This document shows positions 37,473 to 61,073 of a stretch of DNA of 64,000 nucleotides, one piece after another (the first letter of the stretch is position 1; the number at the start of each line of letters is the position of its first letter). The notes under the pieces are model-generated. The model searched no databases. It saw only the letters and a list, made by a program, of their open reading frames with translations, and had not been told where the DNA came from. The position numbers and the translations under genes were made by a program. The DNA lies in NCBI GenBank assembly GCA_963796905.1, contig CAWCNK010000008.1, positions 225,298-289,297 on the forward strand. Direction: 5' to 3'. The DNA is from an uncultured Actinomycetota bacterium. Its GTDB lineage: Bacteria; Actinomycetota; Actinomycetes; Mycobacteriales; Jatrophihabitantaceae.

Positions 37473-37635
37473 CTGGGCTCCTGATGTGTCGCTGTGGCAG
37501 GACGCGGCGTCCTGTGAGGCCCCCGGGCGGAAGGGTAGCCGGGTGACGGCGGGCCGGCGGGCGATTGCCGATCGCGGCGCGCGACCGGGACGCCGGCCGT
37601 TTCGCACCGGGCCGCCGGCTGGCTACGGTCGAGAC

Positions 37636-42203: not shown

Positions 42204-42256
42204 GGGCAGCGATTCTTCCGCACCCGGCCCGGCGCTGACATCGGGCTGCGGCGGCG

Positions 42257-44265: not shown

Positions 44266-44387
44266 GCTGGAGGACAACGACCGGGCGCCGGGACGGCATT
44301 CCCGCCGTGACAAGCGCCTCAGGCCGGCGGCGGTCGTGGGCAGGACCGGGCTTGGTCCGGCCGGACCGGGACTGGCAGGATGCGGCG

Positions 44388-44948
44388 GTGACGACATATC
44401 GGATCTGCGTGTTTTGCGGGGCCAGTGCCGGGGCGTCCCCGGAGTACGTGGCGCAGGCCCACCAGCTCGGCGGCGAGCTGGGCCGGCGCGGCATCGGGCT
44501 GGTCTACGGCGCCGGCGGGGTCGGCGTGATGGGCGCGGTGTCCGACGGTGCGCTGGCCGCCGGCGGCGAGGTGATCGGGGTGATCCCGCAGGCCCTGATG
44601 GAGCGGGAGTACGGCCGCACCGACCTCAGCGACCTGCGAGTGGTCGCCACCATGCACGAGCGCAAGGCGTTGATGCACGAACTGGCGGACGCCTTCCTGG
44701 TGCTGCCCGGGGGGCTGGGCACCCTGGAGGAGATGTTCGAGACGCTGACCTGGGCGCAGCTCGGGCTGCAGCACAAGCCACTGGTGGTGCTCAACATCGG
44801 GGGCTACTACACGCCGCTGCGCAACCTGCTCGATCACGGGGTTGCCGAAGGTTTCCTGACCGCGCGGGACCAGGCCCTGGTGCGCGTCGTGGACACCCTG
44901 GACGAGGTCTGGCCGGCGCTGCGGCTGGCCCCGGCGGCCCGGGACTAG
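44388..44948 (+). CDS. LOG family protein (nucleotide 5'-monophosphate N-glycosidase / cytokinin riboside 5'-monophosphate phosphoribohydrolase type, TIGR00730-like)
   Basis: GTG at 44388. Sequence: ICVFCGAS...LVYGAGGVGVMG...HERKALM...PGGLGTLEE (PGGxGTxxE motif). Confidence 0.85.
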   Translation: MTTYRICVFCGASAGASPEYVAQAHQLGGELGRRGIGLVYGAGGVGVMGAVSDGALAAGGEVIGVIPQALMEREYGRTDLSDLRVVATMHERKALMHELADAFLVLPGGLGTLEEMFETLTWAQLGLQHKPLVVLNIGGYYTPLRNLLDHGVAEGFLTARDQALVRVVDTLDEVWPALRLAPAARD

Positions 44949-46614: not shown

Positions 46615-47904
<1,290 letters not shown>

Positions 47905-47956
47905 CCGGTCGGGCCGCGCCGTCTGGTCGGGCGCGCCGTCTGGTCGGGCGCGCTTA

Positions 47957-48805
47957 CTAGTCGGGGTCGGCCGGTCGGCCGGGCTGCGCTGCGCAGGCGG
48001 CCAGCAACCGCCGGGCGGTCGCAGCGTCCGGGGCGAGTGCCACCGGCAGCTGGTTGCCGCCGGCCAGGTCGAACGGGGTGCCGGCGGCCGTCTCGGTGTG
48101 CCCACCGGCCTCGGCGTGCAACAGCAGGCCGGCGGCGTGGTCCCAGGGCAGCTCCCAGTTCACCAGCATCGCCGTCCGGCGGCCGGCCGCCAGCTCCAGG
48201 TAGACCAGGCCGGAGGTGTCGAAGAAGGCGGGCGAGACCCCGGTGCCGAACAGCGCGTTGAACCGGCTGCGGTCCGCGGCCGCCCACCAGCGCGGCTGCG
48301 GCAGCGCCACGTCCAGCCCGCGCAGGCCGTCCGGCGGCCGGGCCACCCGGAGCCGCCGGGAGTTGAGGTAGGCGCCCTGCCCGGCCACCGCGGTCGCGGT
48401 CAGCTCCAGCAACGGCGCCACCGTCCAGGACGCCAGCAGCCGACCGCCCTGCGCCAGCGCGACCAGGGTGGCGAACCGCGGGCTGCCGGTGGCGAACGCC
48501 TCGGTGCCGTCGATCGGGTCGACGATCCACACCGGCGCCGGCCCGCGCAGCGCGTCCAGCACCGCGGGGTCGGCGGCCACCGCCTCCTCGCCGACCACCA
48601 CCGAGCCCGGCAGCAGGTCCGCCAGCACCCGGCCCAGCTCCCGCTCGGCGTCGGAGTCGGCGACGGTGACCAGGTCGCCCGGCGCCTTCTCGGCCACCTC
48701 GGCGTCGGTGAGCCGGCCGAACCGGGGGACGATCAGCTCGCCGGCCACCCGCCGGATCTGCTCGGTGACGAAGCCGAGTTGCGGGCCGGTCAGCACGGCG
48801 GCCAC
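47957..48805 (-). CDS. Inositol monophosphatase family phosphatase
   Basis: 282 aa with a GTG start. Motifs are VGEE, WIVDPIDGT and WDHAAG. The start lies 1 nt after the stop of the upstream MFS gene. Confidence 0.85.
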   Translation of the reverse strand: MAAVLTGPQLGFVTEQIRRVAGELIVPRFGRLTDAEVAEKAPGDLVTVADSDAERELGRVLADLLPGSVVVGEEAVAADPAVLDALRGPAPVWIVDPIDGTEAFATGSPRFATLVALAQGGRLLASWTVAPLLELTATAVAGQGAYLNSRRLRVARPPDGLRGLDVALPQPRWWAAADRSRFNALFGTGVSPAFFDTSGLVYLELAAGRRTAMLVNWELPWDHAAGLLLHAEAGGHTETAAGTPFDLAGGNQLPVALAPDAATARRLLAACAAQPGRPADPD

Positions 48806-48806
48806 G

Positions 48807-50018
48807 CTACCGGGCAGCGGGTTCGGCCCGGACGAACGCCAGCAGCGCCACCGCCAGGGCCAACACCGCGCAGCCGGCGGTCAGCAGGAACGAACCCCGC
48901 ACCCCCGGAGCACCGCCGATGCTCACGCCGGCGACCGAGGAGCCGAGGGCGCTGCCGGCCAGGAACAGCGTGGTGACCCAGGCGAAGGCCTCGGTGACGG
49001 TGCCGGCCGGCGCGGCGTCGGCGATCAGCACGAAGCCGCAGGCCAGGATCGGCGCCAGGAAGAAGCCGGCCACGAACAGCAGGCCGAACATCCAGACCGG
49101 CTGCGGGGTCAGCGCCAGCGGCAGGTAGCCCAGCGCCATCGCCGCCAGCAGCCAGCGCAGCCGCACCACCGGGTTGCCGCGCCAGTGCCGGCTGCCGTAG
49201 AGCAACCCGCCCACCAGCCCGCCGAGCGAAGCGGTGCCCAGCAGGCCCCCGGAGTAGGACGACGAGCCGGCCTGCTCGGCGTAGCCGACCACCACCACGT
49301 TGAGCACGCCCAGCGAGCTGCCCACCCAGAACATGCTGCCCAGGATCACCACGACCAGCCGGGACCGCAGCGCGCCGGCCCAGTGCGGGGTATGTGCGGG
49401 CGGGCGCCAGTGCCGGACCGGTTCCCGGCTGACGAACAGCAGGGTGCCGACCAGCATGGTCGCGCTCAGCACGTACAGCGCCACCTCGGGGGCAACCGTG
49501 GCGAACAGCACCGCGGCCAGGAACGGCCCGATTATGTAGAGCAGTTCCTGCAGCGAGGTGTCCAGCGCGTAGGCGACCTCGACCAGCGCCCGGTCCGGCA
49601 GCACCACCGACCACAGGCTGCGCAGCGCCGGCTCCAGGGGCGGCGAGAGCAGGCCGGCCAGCAGCACGCAGGCCATCGGGTAGCGCAGGTCGGCGTCCCC
49701 GGCGGTCGCCAGCAGGCAGAAGCCGGCGGCCGAGCCGAAGCCGGCGACGGTCAGCACCAGCACCTGGCCGGTCCGGTCGATGGCCCGGCCCAGCGCCGGT
49801 CCGCCCACCGCCGAGGCCAGCGCGAAGGTGGCGATCACCGCCCCCACCTCTGCGAACGAGCGGCCGTGCGCGCGCAGGAACAGCACGATGGACAGCGTCG
49901 CCATCCCGTTGGGCACCCGGCCGAGCAGGTTGGCACCGATCAGTGCCAGCGCGTGCGGCTGGGCCAGGCAGGCCCGGTAGCTGGCGAGCCCCGGATGGGC
50001 GGGCGCCTCGGCGGTCAT
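48807..50018 (-). CDS. MFS transporter
   Basis: 403 aa from ATG at 50018 (MTAEAPAHPGLASYRACL...), with 12 TM segments. The start lies 16 nt after the GMC oxidoreductase stop. Confidence 0.8.
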   Translation of the reverse strand: MTAEAPAHPGLASYRACLAQPHALALIGANLLGRVPNGMATLSIVLFLRAHGRSFAEVGAVIATFALASAVGGPALGRAIDRTGQVLVLTVAGFGSAAGFCLLATAGDADLRYPMACVLLAGLLSPPLEPALRSLWSVVLPDRALVEVAYALDTSLQELLYIIGPFLAAVLFATVAPEVALYVLSATMLVGTLLFVSREPVRHWRPPAHTPHWAGALRSRLVVVILGSMFWVGSSLGVLNVVVVGYAEQAGSSSYSGGLLGTASLGGLVGGLLYGSRHWRGNPVVRLRWLLAAMALGYLPLALTPQPVWMFGLLFVAGFFLAPILACGFVLIADAAPAGTVTEAFAWVTTLFLAGSALGSSVAGVSIGGAPGVRGSFLLTAGCAVLALAVALLAFVRAEPAAR

Positions 50019-50034
50019 CGCAGGGCCTCGACCG

Positions 50035-51540
50035 TCATCGCAGCCCGGCGACCAGCGGGCCGGCCAGCGCCGCGGCCACCGCCAGCACGCTGAGCTGGGT
50101 GTTGGCCCGCGGCGTGCTGGGCAGCACCGAGGCGTCGGCGACGACCAGGTTGTCGAAGCCGTGCACCCGGCCCTGGCCGTCGGCCACCGCACCCCGCGCC
50201 GGGTCGGGGCCGAGCGCGCAGGTGCCCACCGGATGCCAGTAGGTGCCCAGCGTGGTGCGCAGCCGGGCCAGCCCCGCCGGGCTGCGGTCGCCGAGGTCGG
50301 GCGCCTCGACCAGGGTGGCCAGGCTCGCCAGCTCCGGGGTGCCGGCCAGTTCCCGGGCCAGCTCCACGCCGTCGGCCAGCGCCTGCAGATCGGCGCCGCC
50401 GGGGTCGGACAGGTAGTTCTGGTCGGGCACCGGCTCGCCGTCGCGGAGCCGGACCGAGCCGCGGGAGGCCGGCTTCATCAGGAACGCGGTGATGCCGACC
50501 TCGTACTGGCCCGGCGCCGGGGTGCCGAACAGCGGCGCGCCGGCGGTCGGCAGCAGGTGCAGGTCCCACTGGCCGGCCGGGCACGCCGACGACGCGGCCT
50601 TGACGGCCACCTGGCTGGCGTACAGCTTGCCGCGGCCCTCGATCTCGGCCAGCGCGTCGCGCAGCCGGTCGGTGGTGGCCAGCCGCAGCGTCACCCCGGG
50701 GTGGTCGGACAGGTTCGCCCCGACCCCGGACAGCTCGTGCACCGCGGCCACCCCGTCGGCCGCCAGCCGTCGCGGATCGCCGATGCCGCTGCGCATCAGC
50801 ACCGCCGGCGATCCGAAGGCACCGGCGGCCAGCACCACGGTGCCCGCGGCGATCCGCCGGAGCTGCCCGTCGTGGCTGACCAGCACCCCGGTCACGGTGC
50901 CGCCGGTGAACTCCAGCCGTTGTACGCAGGCCCCGGCGAGGATGTCCACCGCGTCGTCGGCCCGGCAGTCGTCGAGGTAGCCGAAGGCGGCGTTCCAGCG
51001 CAGGTCACCGACCGCGTTGATCGGCGGCATGCCGACCCCGGCCCCGGCGGTCCGGCCGGCCAGGTCCTCGGTGAGCGGGTAGCCCAGCCGCTGGGCGCCG
51101 GTCACACTCGCCGCCGAGAACAGCGAGATCTCCTCCTCGGCCACCGGCCGGACCCGCAGCCGGTCCAACGCGGCGGCGCGGTGCGGCTCCAGCGCCGCCG
51201 CGGTCAGCTGCGGCGCACCAGCCAGTTCGGCCCACTCGTCGTAGTCGGCGTCCGAGCCCCAGGTGTGCCAGCAGCCGTTGACGCAGGAACTGCCGCCGAG
51301 CACCTTGCCGCACCACTCGTTCGGAGGGGCAGCCGGGTTCCACAGGTCCTCGCGGGGCAACTCGCGGGCGTCCAGGACGCCGGCCGGCCAGCTCGCCCGG
51401 TCCGGGCCGTAGTCCGGGCCGGCCTCGACCAGCAGCATCGACAACCCCGGCAGCTGCCGGGCGGCGGCGGCGAGCACGCAGCCGGCGACGCCGCCACCGA
51501 CGATGATCAGGTCGTAGCTGCTGCGCGGGGAAACGGGCAC
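50035..51540 (-). CDS. GMC family FAD-dependent oxidoreductase
   Basis: 501 aa. The FAD-binding motif is YDLIIVGGGVAGCVLAA. Other GMC landmarks are GKVLGGSSCVNG and the C-terminal HPVGTCALG. Confidence 0.85.
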   Translation of the reverse strand: MPVSPRSSYDLIIVGGGVAGCVLAAAARQLPGLSMLLVEAGPDYGPDRASWPAGVLDARELPREDLWNPAAPPNEWCGKVLGGSSCVNGCWHTWGSDADYDEWAELAGAPQLTAAALEPHRAAALDRLRVRPVAEEEISLFSAASVTGAQRLGYPLTEDLAGRTAGAGVGMPPINAVGDLRWNAAFGYLDDCRADDAVDILAGACVQRLEFTGGTVTGVLVSHDGQLRRIAAGTVVLAAGAFGSPAVLMRSGIGDPRRLAADGVAAVHELSGVGANLSDHPGVTLRLATTDRLRDALAEIEGRGKLYASQVAVKAASSACPAGQWDLHLLPTAGAPLFGTPAPGQYEVGITAFLMKPASRGSVRLRDGEPVPDQNYLSDPGGADLQALADGVELARELAGTPELASLATLVEAPDLGDRSPAGLARLRTTLGTYWHPVGTCALGPDPARGAVADGQGRVHGFDNLVVADASVLPSTPRANTQLSVLAVAAALAGPLVAGLR

Positions 51541-51584
51541 GACGGGATGTCCTTTCGCGAGCGAGGCGAACCGGCCAATCTATA

Positions 51585-52277
51585 TCAGCAGGCGAGGTCG
51601 GGGGCGGCCTGCCAGTCCGGCGCCAGGTGCTCCACGCTGCCCAGCTCGACCAGCCGGGGCCGGCCGCCGTCGAAGGCGATCCGGGTGACCGAACTGACCG
51701 CGACCGGCCCGATCCGGCGGTACTGGCCCAGCGGCAGGCCCAGGAAGTGGCACACCAGCAGCCGCACCGGCGCCTTGTGGGTGAGCAGCGCGATCTTCGT
51801 CCCGGCCCGGCCGGCCATCGCCTCGGTGGCCGCGGCCAGCGCCCGGCCCAGCACCGCCAGGCCGGTCTCGCCACCCGGCGGCGGGTGCCGCGCCGGGTCG
51901 GAGCACCAGGCCTGGTAGTCGGGCTCGGTGCGCACCTGCTCCGGACGGTGGCGCTCCCAGCGTCCGAAGCTCAGCTCCCGCAGCCGGGGGTCGAGCTGGG
52001 CGACCAGCCGGTGCCGGCCGGCGAGCTCGGTGGCGGTCTGGACGCTGCGCCGGGCGGGGCTGGCCACCAGCTGGTCCAGGCCGGCGAGCCCGGCCGCGCC
52101 GGCCAGCTGGCCCGCCATCAGCCGGCCGGCCGGTGACAGCGGCGGGTCGTGGTCGCCGCAGAACTCCCCGGTCAACGTGCAGCCGGTCTGGGCGTGCCGC
52201 ACCAGTACCAGTTCGCCGGACCAGCCGGCGTACGAACCACCCAGCGCCGGCCCGTACTCCGGCACCGCCAGCACCAC
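51585..52277 (-). CDS. Histidine phosphatase (phosphoglycerate-mutase-like) family protein
   Basis: 230 aa. It contains the LVLVRHAQT (RHG-type) motif, and later ...LLTHKAPVR. Confidence 0.75.
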   Translation of the reverse strand: MVLAVPEYGPALGGSYAGWSGELVLVRHAQTGCTLTGEFCGDHDPPLSPAGRLMAGQLAGAAGLAGLDQLVASPARRSVQTATELAGRHRLVAQLDPRLRELSFGRWERHRPEQVRTEPDYQAWCSDPARHPPPGGETGLAVLGRALAAATEAMAGRAGTKIALLTHKAPVRLLVCHFLGLPLGQYRRIGPVAVSSVTRIAFDGGRPRLVELGSVEHLAPDWQAAPDLAC

Positions 52278-52295
52278 CGATCCCCCCGGCTCCGG

Positions 52296-53120
52296 CTAGG
52301 TCCGGGCGCCGTCGAGGGCGTGCCGGCAGCCGCAGTCGAACTCGGCCGGCAGCGCGTTGACGATCCGGGTGACGGCCTCGACGAAGCGGCCGGAGTTCTC
52401 GCCGAAGGCCTGCAGCACGCGCGCGTGGCTGACCAGGTCGGTGTCCTGCTCCTCGGCACCCACCACCTCGGCCAAGGCCACGTCGTAGTCGGTGACGTAG
52501 GACAGGTTCATGTAGCAGAGCTCCAGCTCGCGGGCCAGCACCACCTCCGGGTACTGGGTCATGTTGAGCACGTGCCAGCCCTGCGAGCGGTACCAGCGGC
52601 TCTCGGCCATGGTGCCGAACCGCGGACCCTGGGTGACCACCACCGTGGCGGCGTCGTGGAAACCGCCCTCGATGCCGTCCAGCGCGCCCTTGGCCAGGTC
52701 GCGCATCCGCAGGCAGTACGGGAAGGCCGAGCTGATGTGGGCGCCGCCCTTGACCGGGGAGTCCTTGCCGAAGAAGGTGTCGACCCGGCCGCTGGTCCGG
52801 TCGATGAACTGGTCCACCAGCACCAGGTCGCCACGCCGGTACTCGGCCTGCAGGCTGCCTACCGTGTTCAGCCCGAGGATCTGCTGGATCCCGAGCTCCT
52901 GGAACGCCCACAGGTTGGCCCGGTACGGAACCTCGTGCGGCAGGTACTCGTGGTCGCGGCCGTGCCGGGGCAGGAATGCCACCGGCCGGCCGTCCAGCAG
53001 CGACAGGCTGATCGGCGCGCTGGTCGGGCCGAACGGGGTCTGCGGATTGACCTCCTCCACCGGTTGCAGGAACTGGTAGAAGCCGGTGCCGCCGATGATC
53101 GCAAGAACGGGGGGTTCCAT
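52296..53120 (-). CDS. MTAP / purine nucleoside phosphorylase family protein (S-methyl-5'-thioadenosine phosphorylase-like)
   Basis: 274 aa from ATG at 53120, after AAGGAG. Sequence: LAIIGGTGFY...FLPRHGRDHEYLPHEVPYRAN...GPRFGTMAESRWYRSQGWHVLNMT. Confidence 0.85.
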   Translation of the reverse strand: MEPPVLAIIGGTGFYQFLQPVEEVNPQTPFGPTSAPISLSLLDGRPVAFLPRHGRDHEYLPHEVPYRANLWAFQELGIQQILGLNTVGSLQAEYRRGDLVLVDQFIDRTSGRVDTFFGKDSPVKGGAHISSAFPYCLRMRDLAKGALDGIEGGFHDAATVVVTQGPRFGTMAESRWYRSQGWHVLNMTQYPEVVLARELELCYMNLSYVTDYDVALAEVVGAEEQDTDLVSHARVLQAFGENSGRFVEAVTRIVNALPAEFDCGCRHALDGART

Positions 53121-53164
53121 GTCGCTCCTTGGTAGCTGGGAAGGGGGTCGGTGACGGCTAGGGA

Positions 53165-54643
53165 TCAGGTGGCCGGCGCGGCCTGCCGCACCGCCACCTG
53201 CAGCGCGGTGTGCAGCGCCGCCTCGGAGAGCACCGGGCCGGCGAACTCGGCATAGGCCCGGACCAGGTTCTCGGTGCTGGACCGGCGCACCGACAGCCAC
53301 TGCCGGTCGGGCAGCGCCAGCCGGACGCCGTCCACCCGCTGCCTCGACAGCGGCGGCAGGTCCAGGCCGGTGGCCGCCAGCAGTCCGGACGCGACCGCCG
53401 GCAGGTCCAGCACCCCGGCCGGGCAGCCGACCGAGGTCTCCAGGTAGTGCCGCCGCCCGTACCGCTCGCGCAGCCCGCCGACGGCCTCGGCCAGGCTCTG
53501 CTGGGTGTCGGCCAGCAGCCGGGCCAGCAGGGCGATCACCACCGACGGATCCCGGTCGGCGCCGAACGGGGCGAAGGCCAGGTCGCCGACGTTGCCGCCG
53601 GCCGCGCAGATCCGCCCGCCGGCCAGCAGCTCGGCCATGTGCTTGAAGCCGACCCCGGTGACCAGCACCTCGCCACCGTGCTCGGCGGCGAGGCGGCCGG
53701 GCAGGCTGGCGGTGGTCGAGGTCACCGCGATGTCCCGGGTGGGCAGCTCGGGCCGGCTGCGGTACAGCTGCTCCAGCAACAGCGCGTACAGCTCGCCGGC
53801 GCCCAGCACCCCGCCGTCCGGGCCGACCACGAAGACCCGGTCACCGTCGCCGTCCAGCACGATGCCGAAGTCGGCCGCCAGCTCCGGCACCGCCGCGGCG
53901 ATCCGGCGCCGGGACGCGGGCAGCGACGGGTCCGGCACCAGGCCGCCGAAGTCCTGCCGGGGCTCACACCCGATGCCGGTCGCCGTCCAGCCGAGCAGTT
54001 CGGCCAGCCGGAGCATGGCCGGCCCCGCGATGCCGTGCAGGCCGTCCACCACCACCCGCCAGGGCCGGCCCGGCGCGAGGCCGACATCGCCCAGTACCCG
54101 GGCCAGGTGGGCCTCGATCACGGGCTCGGCCGGGCTCGGCGACCCGGCCGGCTCAGCCAGCTCGGCCGTCGGCGACCCGGCCGATCGTGGTTCGGCCGGC
54201 GGTGGTCCGGCCGGCGAGGGCGCGGACTCGACCAGCTCCAGGTAGCGGTCCTCGATCTCGGACTCCACCGCGGCCGGGATGCTGCCGGCGACGCCGAACT
54301 TGACCTTGAGGCCGTTCCAGCCGGTCGGGTTGTGGCTGGCGGTGACCAGGAACGCCAGGTCGGCGGAACCGGCCGACACCGCCGCCGAAGCGATCGGGGT
54401 GGGCAACCCGGCGTAGCACAGCGCGGTGATCTCCGGGCGGCGCCGGGCCACCGCGGCGTGCACGGCCGCGGCGACGTCCGGGCCGCCCCGCCGGCCGTCG
54501 TAGCTGATCAATACCCGGCGCAGCGGCACCCGCGGCGCCAGCACGTCCAGCACCGCGGCGGCCAGCAGCCCGGCCGCCGCCGGGGTGAAGCCGGCACCGA
54601 TCTCGCCGCGCCAGCCGTCGGCGCTGGACTTCAGCCTCAGCAC
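53165..54643 (-). CDS. Alpha-D-phosphohexomutase superfamily protein (divergent phosphomannomutase / phosphoglucomutase / phosphopentomutase-like)
   Basis: 492 aa with a GTG start. The catalytic Ser loop is TASHNPTGWNGLKV, the metal loop is LDGDGDRVFV, and the phosphate loop is RRSSTENLVR. The sugar-binding loop is atypical (AAGGNVGD instead of GEESGH). Confidence 0.8.
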   Translation of the reverse strand: MLRLKSSADGWRGEIGAGFTPAAAGLLAAAVLDVLAPRVPLRRVLISYDGRRGGPDVAAAVHAAVARRRPEITALCYAGLPTPIASAAVSAGSADLAFLVTASHNPTGWNGLKVKFGVAGSIPAAVESEIEDRYLELVESAPSPAGPPPAEPRSAGSPTAELAEPAGSPSPAEPVIEAHLARVLGDVGLAPGRPWRVVVDGLHGIAGPAMLRLAELLGWTATGIGCEPRQDFGGLVPDPSLPASRRRIAAAVPELAADFGIVLDGDGDRVFVVGPDGGVLGAGELYALLLEQLYRSRPELPTRDIAVTSTTASLPGRLAAEHGGEVLVTGVGFKHMAELLAGGRICAAGGNVGDLAFAPFGADRDPSVVIALLARLLADTQQSLAEAVGGLRERYGRRHYLETSVGCPAGVLDLPAVASGLLAATGLDLPPLSRQRVDGVRLALPDRQWLSVRRSSTENLVRAYAEFAGPVLSEAALHTALQVAVRQAAPAT

Positions 54644-54706
54644 GGCGACCGCCTCAGTCCGGTCAGCCTCAGCAGCCAGGTCAGCCTCAGCCCGGTCAGC
54701 CTCAGC
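54631..54706 (-). repeat. Four copies of TCAGCCTCAGC (minus strand GCTGAGGCTGA) spanning the kinase-mutase junction
   Basis: Copies lie at 54631-41, 54663-73, 54681-91 and 54696-706. On the coding strand each copy carries two TGA triplets and a GAGG. The array runs from the kinase stop to the mutase GTG. Confidence 0.8.
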
Positions 54707-55652
54707 ATGCCGGCCAGCCCGCCAGGTCGGTCAGGGTGGCCAGCCGGCCCCGGGCACCGACCGCGGTCACCGCCAGCGCGCCGCAGATGTTGCCGACCGC
54801 CAGCCGGCGCTGCGGCGCCAGCCCGGCCAGGCTGGCCAGCAGGTAACCCGCGGCGAAGGCGTCGCCGGCCCCGGTCGGGTCCACCTGCCGCACCGTCTCG
54901 GCGCGGGCGTGCAGCGCGGCACCGCCGGACCGCAGCGCCGAGCCGTCCGCGCCGAGCGTCTGCACCACCTCGGGACGACCGGCCCAGCCGGCCGGCAGCC
55001 CGGCTCGCACCGCCGGCCACTCGTTGCGGTTGACCAGGATCGACCGGCAGCTGGCCAGGTAGGCCCGCGACGATTCCCGATGGGCGTAGATGCCGCCCGG
55101 GTTCCAGACCAGGTTGTCGGCCAGCGCGGTACCGGCGGTGGCGGTGAAGATCTCCGCCAGCGCCGGCTCGGCCGGGTCGAAGATCACCATCGCGTCGTAG
55201 TCGTCGGCCAGTGCTCGCCGGACATGCTCATCAGCCAGCTGGTCGTTGGCACCGGGCAGCAGCAGCATGAAGTGCTGCTCGCCGAACACCGGGATCACCA
55301 CCCGGCCGGTCGGGCTGCGCGGGATCCGCACGATGGGTGTGACGTCCACCCGCTGGGCCCGCAGGTCGGAGATCAGCAGCTCGCCGGTGTCGTCGGCACC
55401 GACCGCGGCCAGCAGCGACACCTCGGCGCCGAGTGCCGCGAGCGCGCAGGCGCAGTTGCCGGCGTGCCCGCCGGGCGCGGTGACCCGTTCCCGGACCAGC
55501 ACCGCACCCTCGTCGCCGGGGTGGTGGTCGGCGATCAGGATCTCGTCGTGGTTCAGCGAGCCGGCCACCAGGATCCGGGTGCGCCGGCCGGCCTGCCGCA
55601 GCGCCTCGACCTCGGCGCCGGCCAGCCGGGTGCCGGACGTCAGGCTGGTCAT
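54702..55652 (-). CDS. PfkB-family carbohydrate/nucleoside kinase (ribokinase-like)
   Basis: 316 aa. The ATG overlaps the RidA stop (ATGA). The C-terminal ATP motif is DPTGAGDAFAAGYL. Confidence 0.85.
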   Translation of the reverse strand: MTSLTSGTRLAGAEVEALRQAGRRTRILVAGSLNHDEILIADHHPGDEGAVLVRERVTAPGGHAGNCACALAALGAEVSLLAAVGADDTGELLISDLRAQRVDVTPIVRIPRSPTGRVVIPVFGEQHFMLLLPGANDQLADEHVRRALADDYDAMVIFDPAEPALAEIFTATAGTALADNLVWNPGGIYAHRESSRAYLASCRSILVNRNEWPAVRAGLPAGWAGRPEVVQTLGADGSALRSGGAALHARAETVRQVDPTGAGDAFAAGYLLASLAGLAPQRRLAVGNICGALAVTAVGARGRLATLTDLAGWPAC

Positions 55653-56074
55653 CGCGGCTCGCCCGCGGCCCGGGCGGCGATGCCGCTGATCTCGACCAGG
55701 CAGCCGTCCTCGACCAGCGCGGCGACCCCGACGAAGGCACTGGACGGGCCGGGCTCGCTGAGCCGGGCGTTGCGCACCGCCGAGACCGGCGCGAAGTTCG
55801 CGGCCAGGTCGCGGACGTAGATGGTCACGCTGACCAGGTCGCCCAGCCCCAGGCCGGCCGCGGCCAGCACGGCGGCGATCCGGTCGAAGACCGCCTCGGC
55901 CTGCCCGGCCGGGTCGTCCGGGTGCAGCAGCCGGCCGTGCTCGTCGGTCGCGACCTGGCCCGAGACGAAGACCAGGCTGCCGGCCGCCTCCGAGCGCAGT
56001 GCGATGCCCGGGCTGTACTTACCGACCGGCTTGGAATGCCCTTGCGGGACTAGGGGAACCCGGTCCCAGCTCAT
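55649..56074 (-). CDS. RidA/YjgF family reactive-intermediate (enamine/imine) deaminase
   Basis: 141 aa. Sequence: GKYSPGIAL...VFVSGQVA...VSVTIYV. The ATG overlaps the SDR stop (ATGA). Confidence 0.85.
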   Translation of the reverse strand: MSWDRVPLVPQGHSKPVGKYSPGIALRSEAAGSLVFVSGQVATDEHGRLLHPDDPAGQAEAVFDRIAAVLAAAGLGLGDLVSVTIYVRDLAANFAPVSAVRNARLSEPGPSSAFVGVAALVEDGCLVEISGIAARAAGEPR

Positions 56075-56829
56075 GACGGTGCCTCCTGGCTCAGGGCCTC
56101 GGGGTACGGGCCGAAGGACGAGGTCAGGGCGGCCAGTTGCAGCTCCCGAACCTCGACGCCGGCCGGCAGCTCGAACAGCCAGCCGATCACGTCGGCGACC
56201 TCGTCGGCCGACAGCGAGCCCGGGCGGGACCCGGCGACGGGCTCGGCCAGGCTGCCCTGGAAGGCGGTGTCCACCCGGCTGGGCAGCAGCGCGGTGATCC
56301 GGACGCCGGCGCTGCGGGCCTCCCGCCGGGCCACCTCGAGCAGCGCCGCCAGGCCGGCCTTGGACGCGGCGTAGGCGGCCCGGCCGGCGAACGGGTGCTT
56401 GGCCGAGTCCGACAGCACGCCGACCACCAGGCTGCCGGGCCGGTCCCGCAGTCGGGGGAGGAATTGCCTGAGCACCAGCATCGAGCCGCGCAGGTTGGTG
56501 GCCAGTGTCTGGTCCCAGACCGCGTCGTCGATGTCGGCGATCTGCTGCCAGATGCCGGAGCCGGCGTTGAGCACCAGGCCGGTCAGCGGTGACTGCCAGT
56601 CGATCGCGGCATGACCCGCGGCGACCTGGTCGGCGTCGGCGACGTCGACCGCACGGACGCTGACCTGGTTGCCGAACGCCGCGGCCTTGTCACCGACCGC
56701 CTGCAGCTCGTCCAGGGTGCGTGCCCACAGCACCAGGTCGAAGCCGGCGGCGGCCAGCCGCAGCGCGGTCTGGGCGCCGATGCCCCTGCTGGCGCCGGTC
56801 ACCAGCACCGTCGCCTGCCGGGCGGTCAC
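56071..56829 (-). CDS. SDR family oxidoreductase
   Basis: GTG at 56829 overlaps the DJ-1 gene stop (GTGA). Motifs are TGASRGIG, NAGSG and YAASKAG (YxxxK). The upstream part of the 477-aa track ORF is repeat-derived junk. Confidence 0.85.
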   Translation of the reverse strand: MTARQATVLVTGASRGIGAQTALRLAAAGFDLVLWARTLDELQAVGDKAAAFGNQVSVRAVDVADADQVAAGHAAIDWQSPLTGLVLNAGSGIWQQIADIDDAVWDQTLATNLRGSMLVLRQFLPRLRDRPGSLVVGVLSDSAKHPFAGRAAYAASKAGLAALLEVARREARSAGVRITALLPSRVDTAFQGSLAEPVAGSRPGSLSADEVADVIGWLFELPAGVEVRELQLAALTSSFGPYPEALSQEAPS

Positions 56830-57656
56830 GAGTGGTCCGCGCCGGCAGCCACCCGGTCCGCGCCGGCAGCCACCCGGTCCGCGCCGGTGGTTACCCGGTC
56901 CGCGCCGGTGGTTACCCGGTCCGCGCCGGCAGCCACCCGGTCCGCGCCGGTGGTTACCCGGTCCGCGCCGGCAGCCACCCGGTCCGCGCCGGTGGTTGCC
57001 CGTTCCGTGGCCTCCGGTGCCATGGCCAGCGTCCGGCCCTGGCGCAACTCCATCCGGTCCAGCAGCTCGGGCAGCACGGCAGGGGCGTGGTCGGCGACCA
57101 GTTGCAGCGCGAGGTCGACCGACTTCACCGAACCGGATCGATCGCCGCCGACCGAGGTCAGGGTGCCGTCCCGGACCAGGCCGGTGCCGGGCCGGCACTC
57201 GGCACCCAGCTCGCCGCGCTTGGCCGCGTGGATGGCCACGGTGCGCCCGGCCGCCAGGCCCGCGGCAGCCACCAGCAAGGCACCGGAGCACACCGTGTAG
57301 AGCGCCGCGCCGTGCCGGTGGGCGGCCCGCAGGTAGTCCAGGTACGCCGCCGCCGCCAACATGTCGCCGACCCCCCGCCCGCCCGGCACCAACACCGCGT
57401 CGGCAGCGCCGGCGACCTCGTTCAGGCCGGCCCGGACGCACAGCTGCAGCCCGCCGGCGGTCTCCAGTTGGGCCCGGTCCGCGGCGAGGGCGACGTCCAG
57501 CCACGGCGCCGGCCCGGCCCGGGTGAGGGCGGCGGCCTTGGACAGCACCCCGTAGGCGCCCAGCAGGTCCAGGTCGTCTACGCCGGGGAACGCCAGCAGC
57601 CGCACCACCACCGTGCCGGGTGGCCGGTCATCAGGCGGGTTCGGCTCATGAGGCAT
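56826..57656 (-). CDS. DJ-1/PfpI family protein with C-terminal heptad tandem repeat
   Basis: ATG at 57656. The nucleophile elbow is YTVCSGALLVAAAG. The C-terminus is 8 x GADRV(A/T)(A/T). The start overlaps the MIPS-like gene stop by 11 nt. Confidence 0.75.
   Translation of the reverse strand: MPHEPNPPDDRPPGTVVVRLLAFPGVDDLDLLGAYGVLSKAAALTRAGPAPWLDVALAADRAQLETAGGLQLCVRAGLNEVAGAADAVLVPGGRGVGDMLAAAAYLDYLRAAHRHGAALYTVCSGALLVAAAGLAAGRTVAIHAAKRGELGAECRPGTGLVRDGTLTSVGGDRSGSVKSVDLALQLVADHAPAVLPELLDRMELRQGRTLAMAPEATERATTGADRVAAGADRVTTGADRVAAGADRVTTGADRVTTGADRVAAGADRVAAGADHS
56834..57001 (-). repeat. 21-bp tandem repeat x8 (two sequence variants) encoding the GADRVAA/GADRVTT heptads
   Basis: The variants ggtccgcgccggcagccaccc (A) and ggtccgcgccggtggttaccc (T) occur in the order A A T T A T A T', exactly in phase from 56834. 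Confidence 0.9.
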
Positions 57657-58746
57657 GTTCGACGCTCGACCGATCGCCGGCCGCGACGTGCATGCCGGCG
57701 TCCAGCTCCAGCAGGCTCTGTGCCACCGCCGCCTCGGTGATGGACGGGTGGCCACCGGCCGGCGACTTGAGAATGCGCGCGGCGGCGGCCGGGAAGCCGC
57801 CCAGGCCCAGCCGCTTGGCGGCGGCGGCGATCCGGATCAGGTCGATGATCACCCCGGCGGCGTTGCTGGAGTCCTGCACCTTGAGCTTGAGGTCCACCGA
57901 GATCGGGGTGCCGGCCCAGCCGACCGCCTCGATGTTGAGCATCCCCACCTTGTTGTCGTTGAGGTGGGCGACGAAGCCGGCGGACGGGATGACCTCCACC
58001 TTGGTGGTGTCCAGCCCCTCCTGGGCCAGGGCGTTGAGTTTCGAGGCGCGCTTGCTCTCGCCGACCACGCGCAGGTTCTTGAAGTCCTCGTTGCCGCCCA
58101 GGTTGAGCTGGTAGGAGCTCACCAGCGACAGCCCGCGGTCGGTGAGCAGGCCGAGCAGGGCGCGGTGCACCACCGAGGTGCCGAGGTGGCTGGCCAGGTC
58201 GTCGCCGACCAGCGGCAGGCCACGGCGCTCGAACTCGGCCAGGGTGGCCGGTACCCGGGCGACCGACTCGGGCGTGCAGTTGACGAACGCCGTGCCGGCC
58301 TCCAGGGCGAGTTGGGCGTAGGCGTCGGCGGCCCACTGCAGGCCGGTCGGCAGTGAGTAGAGCAGCACCTCGGCACGGCTGTCGCGCAGCTGCCGGACGA
58401 TCCGGGTCCACGCCGGGCCGCCCGGCTCGCAGTCGGTCGCCGTCAGGCCCGGGGTGACCGGAAAGCGCAGCTCGGGCAGCGGCACGTCCAGCCGCGGGTA
58501 GTTGTTGGGGGTGGCCAGCACCGCGTCGGAGAACGCCAGGCCCACCTTGCCGGGGTGGACGTCGAAGGCGGCGACGAAGTCGATGTCGGCCACCCCCAGG
58601 CCGCCGATCTCGGCGTGCTTGATGCCGGGCAGCTCGGTGGCCGGCACCCCGTGGGAGAGCAGCTGCCGGTAGTACTGGGCGCCCTGGAACAGGGCCGAGA
58701 TGTTGTTGCCGACCCCGCAGACGGCTAGGCGAAGTGGTTCGGGCAT
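57646..58746 (-). CDS. myo-Inositol-1-phosphate synthase family protein (divergent paralogue)
   Basis: 366 aa. Sequence: RLAVCGVGNNISALFQG...FVAAFDV...GDDLASHLG...QLNLGGNEDFKNL...SKRASK...DSSNAAGVIIDLIRIAAAA. It aligns by eye with mycobacterial Ino1 motifs (QLNVGGNMDFLN, SKKISK, DSPNSAGVIIDAVRAAKIA) but is far more divergent than housekeeping actinobacterial Ino1. Confidence 0.85.
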   Translation of the reverse strand: MPEPLRLAVCGVGNNISALFQGAQYYRQLLSHGVPATELPGIKHAEIGGLGVADIDFVAAFDVHPGKVGLAFSDAVLATPNNYPRLDVPLPELRFPVTPGLTATDCEPGGPAWTRIVRQLRDSRAEVLLYSLPTGLQWAADAYAQLALEAGTAFVNCTPESVARVPATLAEFERRGLPLVGDDLASHLGTSVVHRALLGLLTDRGLSLVSSYQLNLGGNEDFKNLRVVGESKRASKLNALAQEGLDTTKVEVIPSAGFVAHLNDNKVGMLNIEAVGWAGTPISVDLKLKVQDSSNAAGVIIDLIRIAAAAKRLGLGGFPAAAARILKSPAGGHPSITEAAVAQSLLELDAGMHVAAGDRSSVEHAS

Positions 58747-58801
58747 CGGGACTCCTCTGCTGCGTGGCGAGACAACTCTGTGCTGGGGAAGGGCGTACTG
58801 A

Positions 58802-59842
58802 TCAGCTGGCGCGGGCCGGCTCGGCCGAGGCCAGGGCGACCGCCTCGGCCAGTCGCTGCTGGGCCCACAAACCGTCGGCGAAGCTCGCCAGCACCTCGTC
58901 CGGATCGGGCCGGCCGGCGATCGCCGCCAGCACCTGCGGATAGGGGTCCAGCGAAACGGGCCCGTAGCGGGCGGTCTTGCTGGTCGCGTTACCGCTGTGC
59001 ACCGTCAGCTCCGCCGAGGCGTCGTCGGCCTGCAGGCGCAGCTGCAGGCAGCGTTGCGACCCCTCGATCTGCAGCGCGATCTCTCGCACCCCGCGGGTCA
59101 GCCGGGACAGCGAGACGCTGGCCAGGCAGCCGGAGTCCGGCTCGCGCAGCCATACCTCGGCCAGGTCCTCGGTGCGGGGCCCGGCCGGTTGCAGCGCCGG
59201 CGGGTCCAGGTCCTGGCGCACCGTGCTGGTGTGCGCGGCGACGGCCGACCAGTCCCGCGGGATCAGCCAGTGCAGCAGGTCGAACAGGTGCACGCCCTGA
59301 TCGCCCAGGGTGCCGGCCCCGGCCTGGTCCGGTCGCTGCCGCCAGGACGTCCCGTCGGGCGGCTGTTGCCCGGCGGTGCGGAAGAAATCGTGGAAGAAGC
59401 TGGCCTGCACCCGCTGCAGCGTGCCGATGCCGGCGGCCAGCTGGTCGCGCAGCTCCCGCACTGCCGGGTGGCCGCGCCACTGGAAGTTGACCGCGCTGCG
59501 ATCCGGTGCGGTGGCGGCCAGCGCCACCAGCTCGACGGCCGAGGCGGGTGTGCTGGCCAGCGGCTTGTCCACGAAGGCGAAGGCGCCGGCGGCCAGCGCG
59601 GCGGCCACCAGCTGCTGCCGGGTGTCCGGCGGGGTGACGACCACCGCCAGCCCGATACCGCGCTCGCGCAGCACGCCGACTGGGTCGGTGGACAGGTTGC
59701 CTATGCCGTATCGGCTGGCCAGGTCGGTGGCTCGCTGGTGGTCACGGGCGTAGCAGAGGGTGTCGAGCTCTAGTTCCGGGTGCCCGGCGAGCCACTCCAG
59801 GTGCTGGGCACCGAAGCCGCAACCGAGCACTGCTACCCGCAT
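58802..59842 (-). CDS. Gfo/Idh/MocA family NAD(P)-dependent oxidoreductase
   Basis: 346 aa. The Rossmann motif is MRVAVLGCGFGAQH and the central motif is VDKPLA. It is the first gene of the operon, with GGAGGAGG upstream. Confidence 0.8.
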   Translation of the reverse strand: MRVAVLGCGFGAQHLEWLAGHPELELDTLCYARDHQRATDLASRYGIGNLSTDPVGVLRERGIGLAVVVTPPDTRQQLVAAALAAGAFAFVDKPLASTPASAVELVALAATAPDRSAVNFQWRGHPAVRELRDQLAAGIGTLQRVQASFFHDFFRTAGQQPPDGTSWRQRPDQAGAGTLGDQGVHLFDLLHWLIPRDWSAVAAHTSTVRQDLDPPALQPAGPRTEDLAEVWLREPDSGCLASVSLSRLTRGVREIALQIEGSQRCLQLRLQADDASAELTVHSGNATSKTARYGPVSLDPYPQVLAAIAGRPDPDEVLASFADGLWAQQRLAEAVALASAEPARAS

Positions 59843-59893
59843 TTCCGCCTCCTCCGCACCCAGAGCGCCGGAGTGGTGGTTGTGGTTCCAAAT

Positions 59894-59920
59894 CGCCCTA
59901 ACATGCTGTTACCGGCCCTA
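59894..59920. promoter_or_regulatory. Direct repeat GCCCTAA-N13-GCCCTAA in the AT-richer operon leader (candidate operator)
   Basis: GCCCTAA lies at 59894-59900 and 59914-59920, a 20-bp phasing. This is 50-80 nt upstream of the first operon gene, in the only AT-rich patch of the 205-nt intergenic region. Confidence 0.3.
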
Positions 59921-60047
59921 AGATTTCATACATTACGAGCTGGGGCAAGGACGGCGAAGGTAGCTAACTCATAGGCAACCCGTTGACCCGCGAGCCTCGT
60001 GCAGACAGGCGGGTCCAGAGTTCGGAAGGTCGGCGAGGGGCGTTACC

Positions 60048-61073
60048 TCAGCTTGATGCCGCCTCGCGCCACAGGTCGACGCCGCCCTCGACCGCGTACC
60101 GGTCGATCTCGTCGAGCTCGTCAGAGGTGAAGGACCGGTGCTCCAGTGCGGCAAGGTTCTGCTCGAGCTGGCGCACCGACGAGGCGCCGACCAGCACCGA
60201 GCTGACCCGCTCGTCACGGGCGGCCCACGCGATGGCCAGCTGGGCCAGCGACTGCCCGCGCCGGGCCGCGATGTCGCTGAGTGCCCGGATGCGTTGCAGG
60301 TTCTGCTCGCTGAGCAGGTCGGCCGACAGTGAGGAGTTCTCCGCCATCCGGGAGTCTGCCGGCACCCCGTCGAGGTACTTGTCGGTCAGCATTCCCTGGG
60401 CCAGCGGGGAGAACGCGATCACCCCGGCGCCGGCGTCGGCCACCGCGTCGAGCAGGCCACCCTCGACCCAGCGGTTGAGCAGCGAGTAGGACGGCTGATG
60501 GATGAACAGCGGGGTACCCAGCTCACGAAGGATCCGAGCTGCCTCGGCGGTGCGCTGCGGGGAGTAGGAGGAGATGCCGGCGTAGAGCGCCTTGCCGGAC
60601 CGGACCGCCTGGTCCAGCGCCCCCATGGTCTCGGCCAGCGGGGTGTCCGGGTCGTTGCGGTGGTGGTAGAAGACGTCGACGTAGTCCACGCCCATCCGGC
60701 GCAGCGAGTCGTCCAGGCTCGACAGCAGGTACTTGCGTGATCCGTGGTCGCCGTACGGCCCGGGCCACATGTCCCAGCCGGCCTTGGTCGACAGGAACAG
60801 CTCGTTGCGGTACGGCCGGAAGTCCTGGGCGTACAGCTTGCCGAAGTTCAGCTCCGCCGAACCGTACGGCGGTCCGTAGTTGTTGGCCAGGTCGAAGTGG
60901 GTGACGCCGAGGTCGAAGGCGCGCCGCAGGATCGCCCGCTGGGTCTCCAGCGGCCGGTCGTCGCCGAAGTTGTGCCACAGGCCGAGCGAGATCAGCGGCA
61001 GCTGGATCCCGCTGCGGCCCACCCGGCGGTAGGTCATCGTCTGGTAGCGGTCGTCGGCGGCGAGGTAGCTCAT
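60048..61073 (-). CDS. Aldo/keto reductase (YghZ / L-glyceraldehyde-3-phosphate reductase-like, AKR14-type)
   Basis: 341 aa. Sequence: GLWHNFG...THFDLANNYGPPYGSAE...DVFYHHRND...LAQGMLT. Confidence 0.9.
   Translation of the reverse strand: MSYLAADDRYQTMTYRRVGRSGIQLPLISLGLWHNFGDDRPLETQRAILRRAFDLGVTHFDLANNYGPPYGSAELNFGKLYAQDFRPYRNELFLSTKAGWDMWPGPYGDHGSRKYLLSSLDDSLRRMGVDYVDVFYHHRNDPDTPLAETMGALDQAVRSGKALYAGISSYSPQRTAEAARILRELGTPLFIHQPSYSLLNRWVEGGLLDAVADAGAGVIAFSPLAQGMLTDKYLDGVPADSRMAENSSLSADLLSEQNLQRIRALSDIAARRGQSLAQLAIAWAARDERVSSVLVGASSVRQLEQNLAALEHRSFTSDELDEIDRYAVEGGVDLWREAASS

Follow-up and report, generated by a model that had tools for sequence, protein, structure and literature searches.

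The locus considered here is a run of twelve genes on the minus strand of a 64,000-nucleotide stretch (hereafter the window) of contig CAWCNK010000008.1, from an uncultured Jatrophihabitantaceae bacterium. It is centred on a protein that resembles MIPS, the synthase of myo-inositol 1-phosphate, and it had been proposed to encode a cyclitol or carbocyclic-nucleoside pathway. Because the window is high in G+C (70-76%), genes were picked by third-position GC and then confirmed by profile searches against Pfam and NCBIfam. These searches returned twelve intact genes, with the families and the order given in the original prediction:

59843-60047, minus strand: upstream intergenic region of 205 nt, the presumed operon promoter region and the sole gap in the array that exceeds 58 nt
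58802-59842, minus strand: Gfo/Idh/MocA NAD(P) oxidoreductase, gene 1 (Pfam GFO_IDH_MocA and C-terminal domains), in the position of ari1 if the numbering is read from gene order
57646-58746, minus strand: putative Ari2-type five-membered-cyclitol-phosphate synthase of the MIPS fold (match to PDB 6K96)
56826-57656, minus strand: DJ-1/PfpI-superfamily protein (Pfam DJ-1_PfpI), with an 11-nt overlap with the Ari2-like gene
56071-56829, minus strand: short-chain dehydrogenase/reductase (SDR; Pfam adh_short, 1.9e-40)
55649-56074, minus strand: Rid/YjgF-family protein (Pfam Ribonuc_L-PSP)
54702-55652, minus strand: PfkB/ribokinase-family kinase (Pfam PfkB)
53165-54643, minus strand: atypical mutase of the alpha-D-phosphohexomutase superfamily (PGM_PMM domains I-IV)
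52296-53120, minus strand: MTAP-type purine nucleoside phosphorylase, a putative Ari9/MacI orthologue (PNP_UDP_1 fold, Pfam 1.4e-32)
51585-52277, minus strand: CobC-like histidine phosphatase, branch 1 (Pfam His_Phos_1, 1.2e-44)
50035-51540, minus strand: GMC flavoprotein oxidoreductase (Pfam GMC_oxred_N and GMC_oxred_C)
48807-50018, minus strand: MFS transporter, presumed exporter (Pfam MFS_1)
47957-48805, minus strand: IMPase-family phosphatase, the last gene of the operon (Pfam Inositol_P, 1e-39)

When recomputed from Gfo to IMPase, the junctions measured +55, -11, -4, -4, -4, +58, +44, +18, +44, +16 and +1 nt, in agreement with the four overlaps of 4-11 nt and the maximum gap of 58 nt that had been described. 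The start of the SDR gene was fixed from its reading frame as the GTG at 56829, inside the GTGA overlap with the gene upstream. Shine-Dalgarno sequences are recognisable before several of the operon genes, and the one upstream of the Gfo gene reads GGAGGAGG. The closest relatives of the locus are found in metagenome-assembled genomes of Jatrophihabitans, where the MIPS-like protein is 96% identical. Two of these loci (L001 and L002) are syntenic, with all twelve genes in the same order, and relative to them every gene of the window operon is full length. A third (L060) has the same order from SDR to IMPase, at which point the end of the locus is reached. A scan for sigma-70 promoters and intrinsic terminators gave nothing above chance, with no sigma-70-type consensus in 59843-60047, which is expected because the host is a high-GC actinomycete. 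An Rfam scan of positions 42000-64000 found no riboswitch or leader, the sole match being a sub-threshold miRNA model.

The identity of the central cyclase was the first key to the locus. The MIPS-like protein matched PDB 6K96, deposited as a five-membered-cyclitol-phosphate synthase, over residues 1-355 with 545 bits (E=5e-163), as compared with 194 bits for PDB 1GR0, the Ino1 of Mycobacterium tuberculosis. It shares 71.4% identity over 350 residues with Ari2 and 37.6% with M. tuberculosis Ino1, and its score with the NCBIfam Ino1 equivalog (TIGR03450, mycothiol_INO1) was 198.7 bits, under the cut-off of 638. In a neighbour-joining tree rooted on Ino1, the window cyclase falls inside a clade with Ari2 and a Micromonospora haikouensis protein. 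Synthesis of a five-membered cyclitol phosphate has been reported for the Streptomyces citricolor enzyme Ari2 (Kudo 2016, 2019, as cited in PMC11348189 and PMC12983305), which converts fructose 6-phosphate (F6P), with NAD+, to a hydroxymethyl-cyclopentane-tetrol phosphate (PMC9092360, PMC11188666). Based on the 6K96 and Ari2 matches, the score below the Ino1 cut-off and the position in the tree, the protein is by homology an Ari2 orthologue and not merely a divergent MIPS. The claim that this paralogue is not a housekeeping enzyme is therefore borne out by its placement with Ari2 and away from Ino1; a grouping with housekeeping Ino1, which would have spoken against the proposal, did not appear in the neighbour-joining tree. 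No second ino1-like gene was found in the 64-kb window.

The second line of evidence is gene order. A pattern scan of 185,579 species-representative genomes, which was based on an alignment of the paralogue family and was not exhaustive, gave 55 related loci. All window proteins were compared with these loci by tblastn, and the matches were resolved by position. Two loci served as references. The first (L007), from Kitasatospora sp. HPMI-4, encodes an Ari2 that is 99.7% identical to 6K96, and stands in for the ari cluster of S. citricolor, which makes aristeromycin (MIBiG BGC0001514). The second (L008) is the locus of M. haikouensis DSM 45626, in which a 24-gene mac cluster for aristeromycin and coformycin has been defined (PMC12648386). 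Both references have the order Gfo-Ari2-DJ-1-SDR-Rid-PfkB-[AhcY]-mutase-MTAP-[AhcY]-[AhcY]-His-phosphatase, where the bracketed genes encode S-adenosylhomocysteine (SAH)-hydrolase paralogues. Nine of the twelve window genes (Gfo, Ari2-like, DJ-1, SDR, Rid, PfkB, mutase, MTAP and His-phosphatase) are collinear with both.

Amino acid identities to L007 and L008, respectively, were 39% and 34% for Gfo, whose counterpart lies directly upstream of Ari2, 71% and 71% for the Ari2-like cyclase, 49% and 43% for DJ-1, 57% and 56% for SDR, 57% and 56% for Rid, 54% and 51% for PfkB, 45% and 43% for the mutase, 62% and 64% for MTAP, and 46% and 45% for the His-phosphatase, the last core gene in the references. 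In other words, eight of the nine genes are 39-62% identical to the ari set, next to a cyclase at 71%, and the range for the mac set is 34-71%. The tight translational coupling of the core genes is also common to the window and the ari cluster. The nine-gene collinearity extends to homologues in more than 20 other genomes, so the arrangement is not due to chance. The ninth gene of L007 is the MTAP homologue, in agreement with the published Ari9, an adenosine phosphorylase; Ari9 and MacI have both been described as such (PMC8599513, PMC8694150), and MacI and MacT have been characterised as adenosine phosphorylases (PMC8694150). When the mac letters are counted from Gfo, gene order makes MacI the MTAP homologue and MacG, MacJ and MacK the three SAH-hydrolase paralogues.

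Taken together, these comparisons make it very probable that the operon belongs to the aristeromycin/neplanocin (ari/mac) family of biosynthetic gene clusters; it is predicted to make a carbocyclic adenine nucleoside. The proposal of a dedicated, non-housekeeping pathway holds up on the nine collinear genes and on the cyclase of the Ari2 clade. Conservation in a catabolic regulon would have pointed elsewhere, and the conserved relatives are instead biosynthetic clusters of producers.

The remaining core enzymes carry signatures that are shared across the family, as judged from alignments of the cassette homologues extracted from the loci (36 homologues each for Rid and DJ-1). The Rid protein has Ser where RidA has its catalytic Arg (Arg105 of E. 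coli RidA), the position having been checked on PDB alignments. At this site, all 36 cassette homologues share the motif P-[AST]-S, and the score with TIGR00004 was 62.5 bits, under the cut-off of 106. Since Ser replaces the catalytic Arg, the protein is not a canonical imine deaminase. In the DJ-1-like protein, the nucleophile-elbow Cys, within a CSG/CTG motif, is likewise unchanged in each of the 36 homologues; among solved structures, isocyanide hydratases come nearest, and MIPS-DJ-1 fusion proteins exist (P0082, P0102). The suggestion that RidA and DJ-1 proteins serve here as mere detoxifiers of enamine or carbonyl intermediates was rejected, as the conserved core invariably includes both and Rid is without the catalytic Arg. 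The DJ-1-like protein has TGADRVA heptads in its C-terminal tail, encoded by a 21-bp tandem repeat of 7.6 copies at 56834-56992 (Tandem Repeats Finder) that stops a few bases short of where the overlapping SDR gene starts. L001, a close relative, is without the repeat, and its protein has 244 residues as compared with 276 in the window; the repeat is therefore a recent expansion.

The best NCBIfam models for the PfkB protein are ribose-1-phosphate kinase and ribokinase, both under their cut-offs. In the mutase, three loops are conserved (phosphoserine, TASHNP; metal, DGDGDR; phosphate, RxS[ST]TE), and the sugar-binding loop is changed from GGEESAG to G[GSA]VGD[LM] in every cassette member. Its relation to solved structures is distant (about 70 bits). 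Judged by these motifs, the mutase is a member of the alpha-D-phosphohexomutase superfamily with a non-canonical substrate site. Short imperfect tandem repeats were also observed at 54127-54216 and 54631-54719, within the mutase gene and a short way upstream of it; the insert that they encode between domains I and II, rich in Pro, Ala and Ser, accounts for the length of 492 residues as compared with 478 in L001. The MTAP homologue scored 289 bits with the NCBIfam MTAP model NF005876, just under the cut-off of 306, and conserves both the adenine-binding TDYD (Asp-x-Asp) and a C-terminal CxC motif. For the His-phosphatase, the best NCBIfam model was alpha-ribazole phosphatase, again under its cut-off. 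These family-wide signatures argue for dedicated pathway enzymes that would act on a non-sugar substrate, and not for generic detoxifiers.

The window differs from both reference clusters in its accessory genes. The ari cluster has SAH-hydrolase paralogues at gene positions 7, 10 and 11, and the window has none; conversely, the GMC, MFS and IMPase genes and the LOG-PurA-PurB neighbour described below were not seen in the 21 kb of L007. In the mac cluster there are likewise three SAH-hydrolase paralogues, together with an AdoHcyase-cupin fusion and a coformycin 'protector' module of the HisG/PenA type, none of which has a homologue in the window. A resistant SAH hydrolase and a HisG coformycin-module gene were considered as candidates and rejected, because tblastn with mac-locus proteins found neither: the three M. 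haikouensis SAH-hydrolase paralogues and its AdoHcyase-cupin protein had no match in the 64-kb window. The L008 HisG (PenA-like) gene also had no homologue there, and the coformycin module was judged by this HisG/PenA-like marker alone, PenB and PenC not being part of the test. In mac, macW, macG, macJ and macK have been tied to aristeromycin synthesis (review, PMC12648386).

GMC homologues that are 51-56% identical to the window protein adjoin the cassette in Actinokineospora (L015), Kutzneria (L017), Spongiactinospora (L024) and Nonomuraea (L048), the last of which keeps one AhcY alongside GMC; MFS homologues (50-51% identical) lie beside the GMC gene in L015 and L017. Among full nucleoside cassettes, a GMC gene was found in none of the 11 loci with AhcY2/AhcY3 and in 6 of the 10 lineages without them (Fisher p=0.004, uncorrected for phylogeny). 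The two uncharacterised loci of Actinokineospora sp. NBRC 105648 (L015) and Kutzneria buriramensis (L017) come closest to the window in content. Like it, they have the nine-gene core without the three SAH-hydrolase paralogues, and share GMC (51-53%) and MFS (50-51%). Unlike the window, they have the GMC gene in divergent orientation, in a pair with a second SDR gene, and they have neither the IMPase nor LOG-PurA-PurB; L015 keeps an AdoHcyase-cupin gene. The nearest solved structures to the GMC protein are choline, 5-hydroxymethylfurfural (HMF) and alcohol oxidases, and all NCBIfam equivalogs for the IMPase were under their cut-offs. Cassettes that have SAH-hydrolase paralogues and those that do not are mixed in the cyclase tree, which indicates that the accessory modules were swapped repeatedly.

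The related loci fall into four groups. Full cassettes with SAH-hydrolase paralogues occur in Kitasatospora, Micromonospora, Streptomyces, Saccharopolyspora, Longimycelium, Lentzea, and metagenome-assembled genomes of Rhodobacteraceae and Breoghania. Full cassettes without these paralogues, mostly with GMC, occur in Jatrophihabitans, Kutzneria, Actinokineospora, Spongiactinospora and Burkholderia mayonis, and those of Sphingomonas, Rhodanobacter and Parvularcula are without GMC. The Nonomuraea locus is intermediate, with GMC and one SAH-hydrolase paralogue. The third group has a six-gene core alone and includes Nocardia, Streptosporangium, Streptomyces hygroscopicus, Polyangiaceae, Acidobacteriaceae and Paludibacterium; the fourth consists of more distant stand-alone cyclases, about 52% identical. 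A mining paper counts 10 members of the aristeromycin cluster family in six genera, and Jatrophihabitans is not among the four genera named in the portion of its text available (PMC12235509).

The surroundings of some of these loci were also noted. In S. hygroscopicus NBRC 13472 (L027, 424-20960), and also in L028 and L030, an Ari2-like cyclase occurs with SDR, Rid and PfkB and without mutase, MTAP or His-phosphatase. Around the L027 core are B12-radical-SAM, carbamoyltransferase, aminotransferase, ATP-grasp ligase, A-PCP, nucleotidyltransferase and IMPase genes. It looks like an uncharacterised cluster for a non-nucleoside cyclopentitol, and these surroundings suggest that the cyclopentitol is also used outside nucleosides. 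A betaproteobacterial cassette in B. mayonis (L003, CP013388, 1-17065) keeps the gene order, with MIPS, DJ-1, SDR, Rid, PfkB, mutase, His-phosphatase and PNP genes, and lies next to genes for a fatty-acid desaturase, ACP, a cyclopropane-synthase-like methyltransferase, an acyl-AMP ligase and a thioesterase. Its PNP is only 28% identical to the window MTAP and belongs to a different phosphorylase subfamily, as is also the case in Sphingomonas and Rhodanobacter.

Adjoining the operon and convergent with it, on the plus strand and as described in the original prediction, are three further genes:

44307-44948, plus strand: LOG-family nucleotide phosphoribohydrolase (Pfam Lysine_decarbox and LDcluster4; TIGR00730 186 bits vs a cut-off of 96; PGGLGTLEE motif)
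45135-46607, plus strand: PurA-like protein, a divergent adenylosuccinate-synthetase paralogue (Pfam Adenylsucc_synt)
46513 or 46615 to 47904, plus strand: PurB-like protein, an adenylosuccinate-lyase paralogue (Pfam Lyase_1 and ADSL_C)

The likely start of the PurB-like gene is the GTG at 46615, 7 nt past the PurA stop codon, an arrangement that recurs in L060. The spacer between the convergent PurB-like and IMPase genes is 52 nt, and is filled by a 17-bp tandem repeat of about 3 copies (47907-47965) that may be a bidirectional terminator or a recombination scar. The PurA-like protein is just under both purA cut-offs (392 vs 402 and 373 vs 396 bits), and the PurB-like protein is above its own (TIGR00928, 368 bits vs 326). 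PurA belongs to a separate actinomycete clade with 55-64% identity, as compared with about 42% for ordinary PurA, and several members of this clade, in other actinomycetes, are fused to LOG. The position of LOG-PurA-PurB is kept in a Jatrophihabitans relative whose PurA is only 79% identical.

Other members of the clade have their own settings. In Streptomyces sp. NBC_01614 (L061, 9242-12061), a gene for a PurA-LOG fusion of 686 residues directly follows an isopentenyltransferase (IPT) gene, and the pair resembles a module of the cytokinin type with an AMP supply of its own; fusions of this kind are also present in Nocardiopsis, Actinomadura and Bailinhaonella. In Dactylosporangium cerinum (L062, 8221-16963), PurA/PurB paralogues of the same clade occur with a HAD phosphatase, a GMC-like protein, two glycosyltransferases and an MFS protein, possibly another specialised nucleoside locus.

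A precedent for a LOG-type adenine supply comes from angustmycin biosynthesis, where the LOG-family AMP phosphoribohydrolase AgmA supplies adenine (PMC8599513). Given the intact LOG motif, the PurA-LOG fusions, the conserved position and this precedent, LOG-PurA-PurB is most likely an adenine supply line that would lead from IMP to AMP and on to adenine and ribose 5-phosphate. It would be functionally analogous to MacT, the second phosphorylase proposed to supply adenine in mac. The original prediction had spoken of a nucleobase being coupled or uncoupled; for LOG-PurA-PurB, adenine supply is a better reading than uncoupling of the base. The angustmycin (agm) pathway thus resembles what we propose for the window, in that a LOG-family AMP phosphoribohydrolase gives adenine and the route starts from fructose 6-phosphate. 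However, the agm sugar stays a furanose, adenine is attached via pyrophosphate by an APRT-type transferase and not by a phosphorylase, and there is no MIPS-type cyclase.

Based on these observations and on previous work, we propose the following pathway. The Ari2 orthologue would cyclise F6P with NAD+ to the hydroxymethyl-cyclopentane-tetrol phosphate, the sole step that rests on an orthologue characterised both biochemically and by structure. Feeding studies have identified a cyclopentenone ('ketone') and the corresponding alcohol as intermediates, and neplanocin A is converted to aristeromycin (PMC9092360). Gfo, the DJ-1-like protein, Rid and SDR would together oxidise the cyclitol phosphate, eliminate phosphate and water, tautomerise and reduce, to give the cyclopentenone and then a cyclopentenyl tetrol. 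Within this sequence, Gfo may re-oxidise the hydroxyl beside the phosphate-bearing carbon; phosphate may then leave in an enediol-driven elimination like that of methylglyoxal synthase, after which the tertiary alcohol may undergo beta-dehydration. Candidates for these two eliminations are the DJ-1-like and Rid proteins, and SDR, possibly with Gfo or the aldo-keto reductase encoded at 60048-61073, would reduce to the enone and then to the allylic tetrol. Such a scheme accords with the net two-electron reduction needed for the conversion. PfkB and the atypical mutase would then phosphorylate the allylic C-1' hydroxyl to a 1'-phosphate or 1',5'-bisphosphate, and the MTAP homologue could couple adenine to the carbocycle by the phosphorylase reaction in reverse. 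The His-phosphatase, the IMPase or both may strip the remaining phosphate, and the MFS transporter is the presumed exporter.

The end product would probably be a neplanocin-type cyclopentenyl adenine nucleoside, possibly a new or oxidised analogue, rather than aristeromycin, because the SAH-hydrolase paralogues linked to aristeromycin are absent and GMC is present instead. It is speculative that GMC further oxidises the product at the allylic alcohol. Extending this to the family, we tentatively suggest, as an idea that may well prove wrong, that the GMC+MFS sub-family without AhcY2/AhcY3 (Jatrophihabitans, Kutzneria, Actinokineospora, Spongiactinospora and, in part, Nonomuraea) makes an undescribed carbocyclic nucleoside, the candidate being a neplanocin analogue oxidised at the allylic 5'-alcohol, with Jatrophihabitans having its own IMP-AMP-adenine line. 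As part of the same suggestion, the six-gene core (Gfo, Ari2, DJ-1, SDR, Rid and PfkB) would provide an activated cyclopentenyl tetrol by a portable route, spread from Actinomycetota to Burkholderia, Sphingomonas, Polyangiaceae and Acidobacteriaceae and feeding several natural-product classes.

Several points weigh against assigning the operon to carbocyclic nucleoside synthesis of the ari/mac type. We know of no product from this organism, or from any cluster without SAH-hydrolase paralogues, and the scan on which the comparison is built was not exhaustive. Neplanocin-type products inhibit SAH hydrolase, yet the window holds no resistant copy. The LOG-PurA-PurB adjacency is found only in Jatrophihabitans, and elsewhere the PurA clade is linked to cytokinin-type genes; the trio could be independent of the operon. 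According to a 2022 review, Ari2 is the only pathway enzyme that has been characterised biochemically (PMC9092360), so every step after cyclisation is deduced. MacI and MacT were characterised in the phosphorolytic direction, producing adenine (PMC8694150), and formation of the C-N bond to a carbocycle by an MTAP homologue is a proposal.

With this in mind, other explanations were weighed. That the operon serves housekeeping inositol synthesis, or the catabolism of inositol or nucleosides, has a negligible probability, although MIPS, IMPase and a Gfo/IolG-like dehydrogenase are classic inositol genes and PfkB weakly resembles IolC. Actinobacterial Ino1 and IMPase, which provide myo-inositol for mycothiol and phosphatidylinositol, do share features with the locus: the fold and a conserved Lys and Asp are common to Ino1 and the window cyclase, and an IMPase-family gene is also found within the operon. 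However, the window cyclase is 38% identical to M. tuberculosis Ino1 as against 71% to Ari2, falls in another clade and has another gene context. The family models likewise fell far below their cut-offs (Ino1 199 vs 638, IolG 48.6 vs 355 and the IolC N-terminal domain 72 vs 300), no match to the IolB, IolD or IolE families was found among the twelve operon genes or the neighbours scanned with Pfam and NCBIfam, and the conserved relatives are clusters for biosynthesis. On these scores and on gene context, both housekeeping Ino1 and iol-type catabolism were rejected. It is also quite improbable that the operon makes a non-nucleoside cyclopentitol or its phosphate, with mutase, MTAP and phosphatase only recycling adenosine and ribose phosphates. 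Many loci do hold only Gfo, MIPS, DJ-1, SDR, Rid and PfkB, without those three genes, one of them beside a radical-SAM enzyme and a carbamoyltransferase, and MacI and MacT were assayed solely as adenosine phosphorylases (PMC8694150). Nevertheless, in the window the three genes are co-operonic, in the order seen in two proven carbocyclic-nucleoside clusters, and the sugar-binding loop of the mutase is altered family-wide.

The remaining alternatives accept the pathway and differ on the product or on the neighbouring genes. The product may be a known one, neplanocin A or aristeromycin, with GMC, IMPase and MFS as non-homologous replacements for the SAH-hydrolase paralogues or as genes for handling and export. 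We regard this as a serious possibility, if short of an even chance. All nine core genes are present and collinear with ari and mac, the mutual exclusion of GMC and AhcY2/AhcY3 fits a functional replacement, and Kutzneria L017, also without SAH-hydrolase paralogues, has a cyclase that is 80% identical to Ari2. On the other hand, the chemistries differ, since enzymes of the SAH-hydrolase type use tightly bound NAD+ for a transient 3'-oxidation whereas GMC enzymes use FAD for a net alcohol oxidation; macG, macJ and macK are linked to aristeromycin formation (PMC12648386), the lettering of the paralogues being taken from gene order; and no resistant SAH hydrolase was found in the window. As for the neighbours, the PurA- and PurB-like proteins might re-aminate carbocyclic IMP to carbocyclic AMP and so rescue deaminated product in place of the mac coformycin 'protector', or LOG-PurA-PurB might simply be an unrelated neighbour. 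Even taken jointly, these two options seem unlikely. For re-amination speaks that M. haikouensis accumulates the deaminated shunt products neplanocin D and carbocyclic inosine (PMC12648386) and that the window has no homologue of mac HisG (PenA-like), the coformycin marker tested; an unrelated neighbour would fit the other partners of the PurA clade, such as IPT in L061 and the glycosyltransferases in L062. Against re-amination, the PurA-LOG fusions tie PurA to free-base release, something that a carbocyclic nucleotide cannot undergo; the adenine-specific TDYD is retained in the MTAP homologue, and there is the direct precedent of adenine supplied by a LOG enzyme (AgmA, PMC8599513).

Beyond the operon and its convergent neighbours, the nearest gene that may be connected is the following:

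60048-61073, minus strand: aldo-keto reductase, YghZ-like (NF007388 484 bits vs a cut-off of 448)

Homologues of this reductase adjoin the Gfo gene in L013 and L024, and in Jatrophihabitans it comes after fn3 and DUF4232 genes. It may be an accessory gene of the cluster, although this is uncertain. To the left of LOG, at 40001-44397, are an MFS_3 transporter, a NUDIX-like hydrolase (weak match), a TauE-family exporter and a CynX/NimT-type MFS protein; L060 has a similar left-flank set of MarR, MFS_3, NUDIX and MFS genes. The Nudix enzyme and the extra exporters could contribute to self-protection. Among selected large open reading frames scanned in the remaining window were genes for an MMPL protein, a GH3 glycosidase, a sugar ABC transporter, a subtilase and an eCIS-core-domain protein, and this remainder looks unrelated to the operon. 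The last of these, on the minus strand at 34566-37622, is a protein of 1018 residues with the eCIS core domain PF13699, unrelated to the operon.

Aristeromycin and neplanocin A, both antibiotics of the carbocyclic adenosine type, are the natural prototypes of carbocyclic nucleoside drugs, and their pathway involves the loss of two ring oxygens and the attachment of adenine to a carbon ring. The operon described here is a compact, translationally coupled version of that pathway without the three SAH-hydrolase paralogues. It is a variant set apart by the lack of these paralogues and of the HisG marker, by its GMC, MFS and IMPase genes, by LOG-PurA-PurB and by a new host order. The comparison over about 50 loci defines a minimal nine-gene set for nucleoside assembly and a six-gene core, with diagnostic signatures in Rid (Arg-less), the DJ-1-like protein (Cys-containing) and the mutase (rewired sugar-binding loop). 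The set, the core and the signatures jointly provide concrete constructs and hypotheses for reconstituting the pathway. For specialists the surprise may be limited; the value lies in the compact system and the comparative signatures. Finally, the cluster family is extended to Jatrophihabitans, an unexplored genus of the order Jatrophihabitantales with no known nucleoside antibiotics, which may be a source of new carbocyclic nucleoside analogues.

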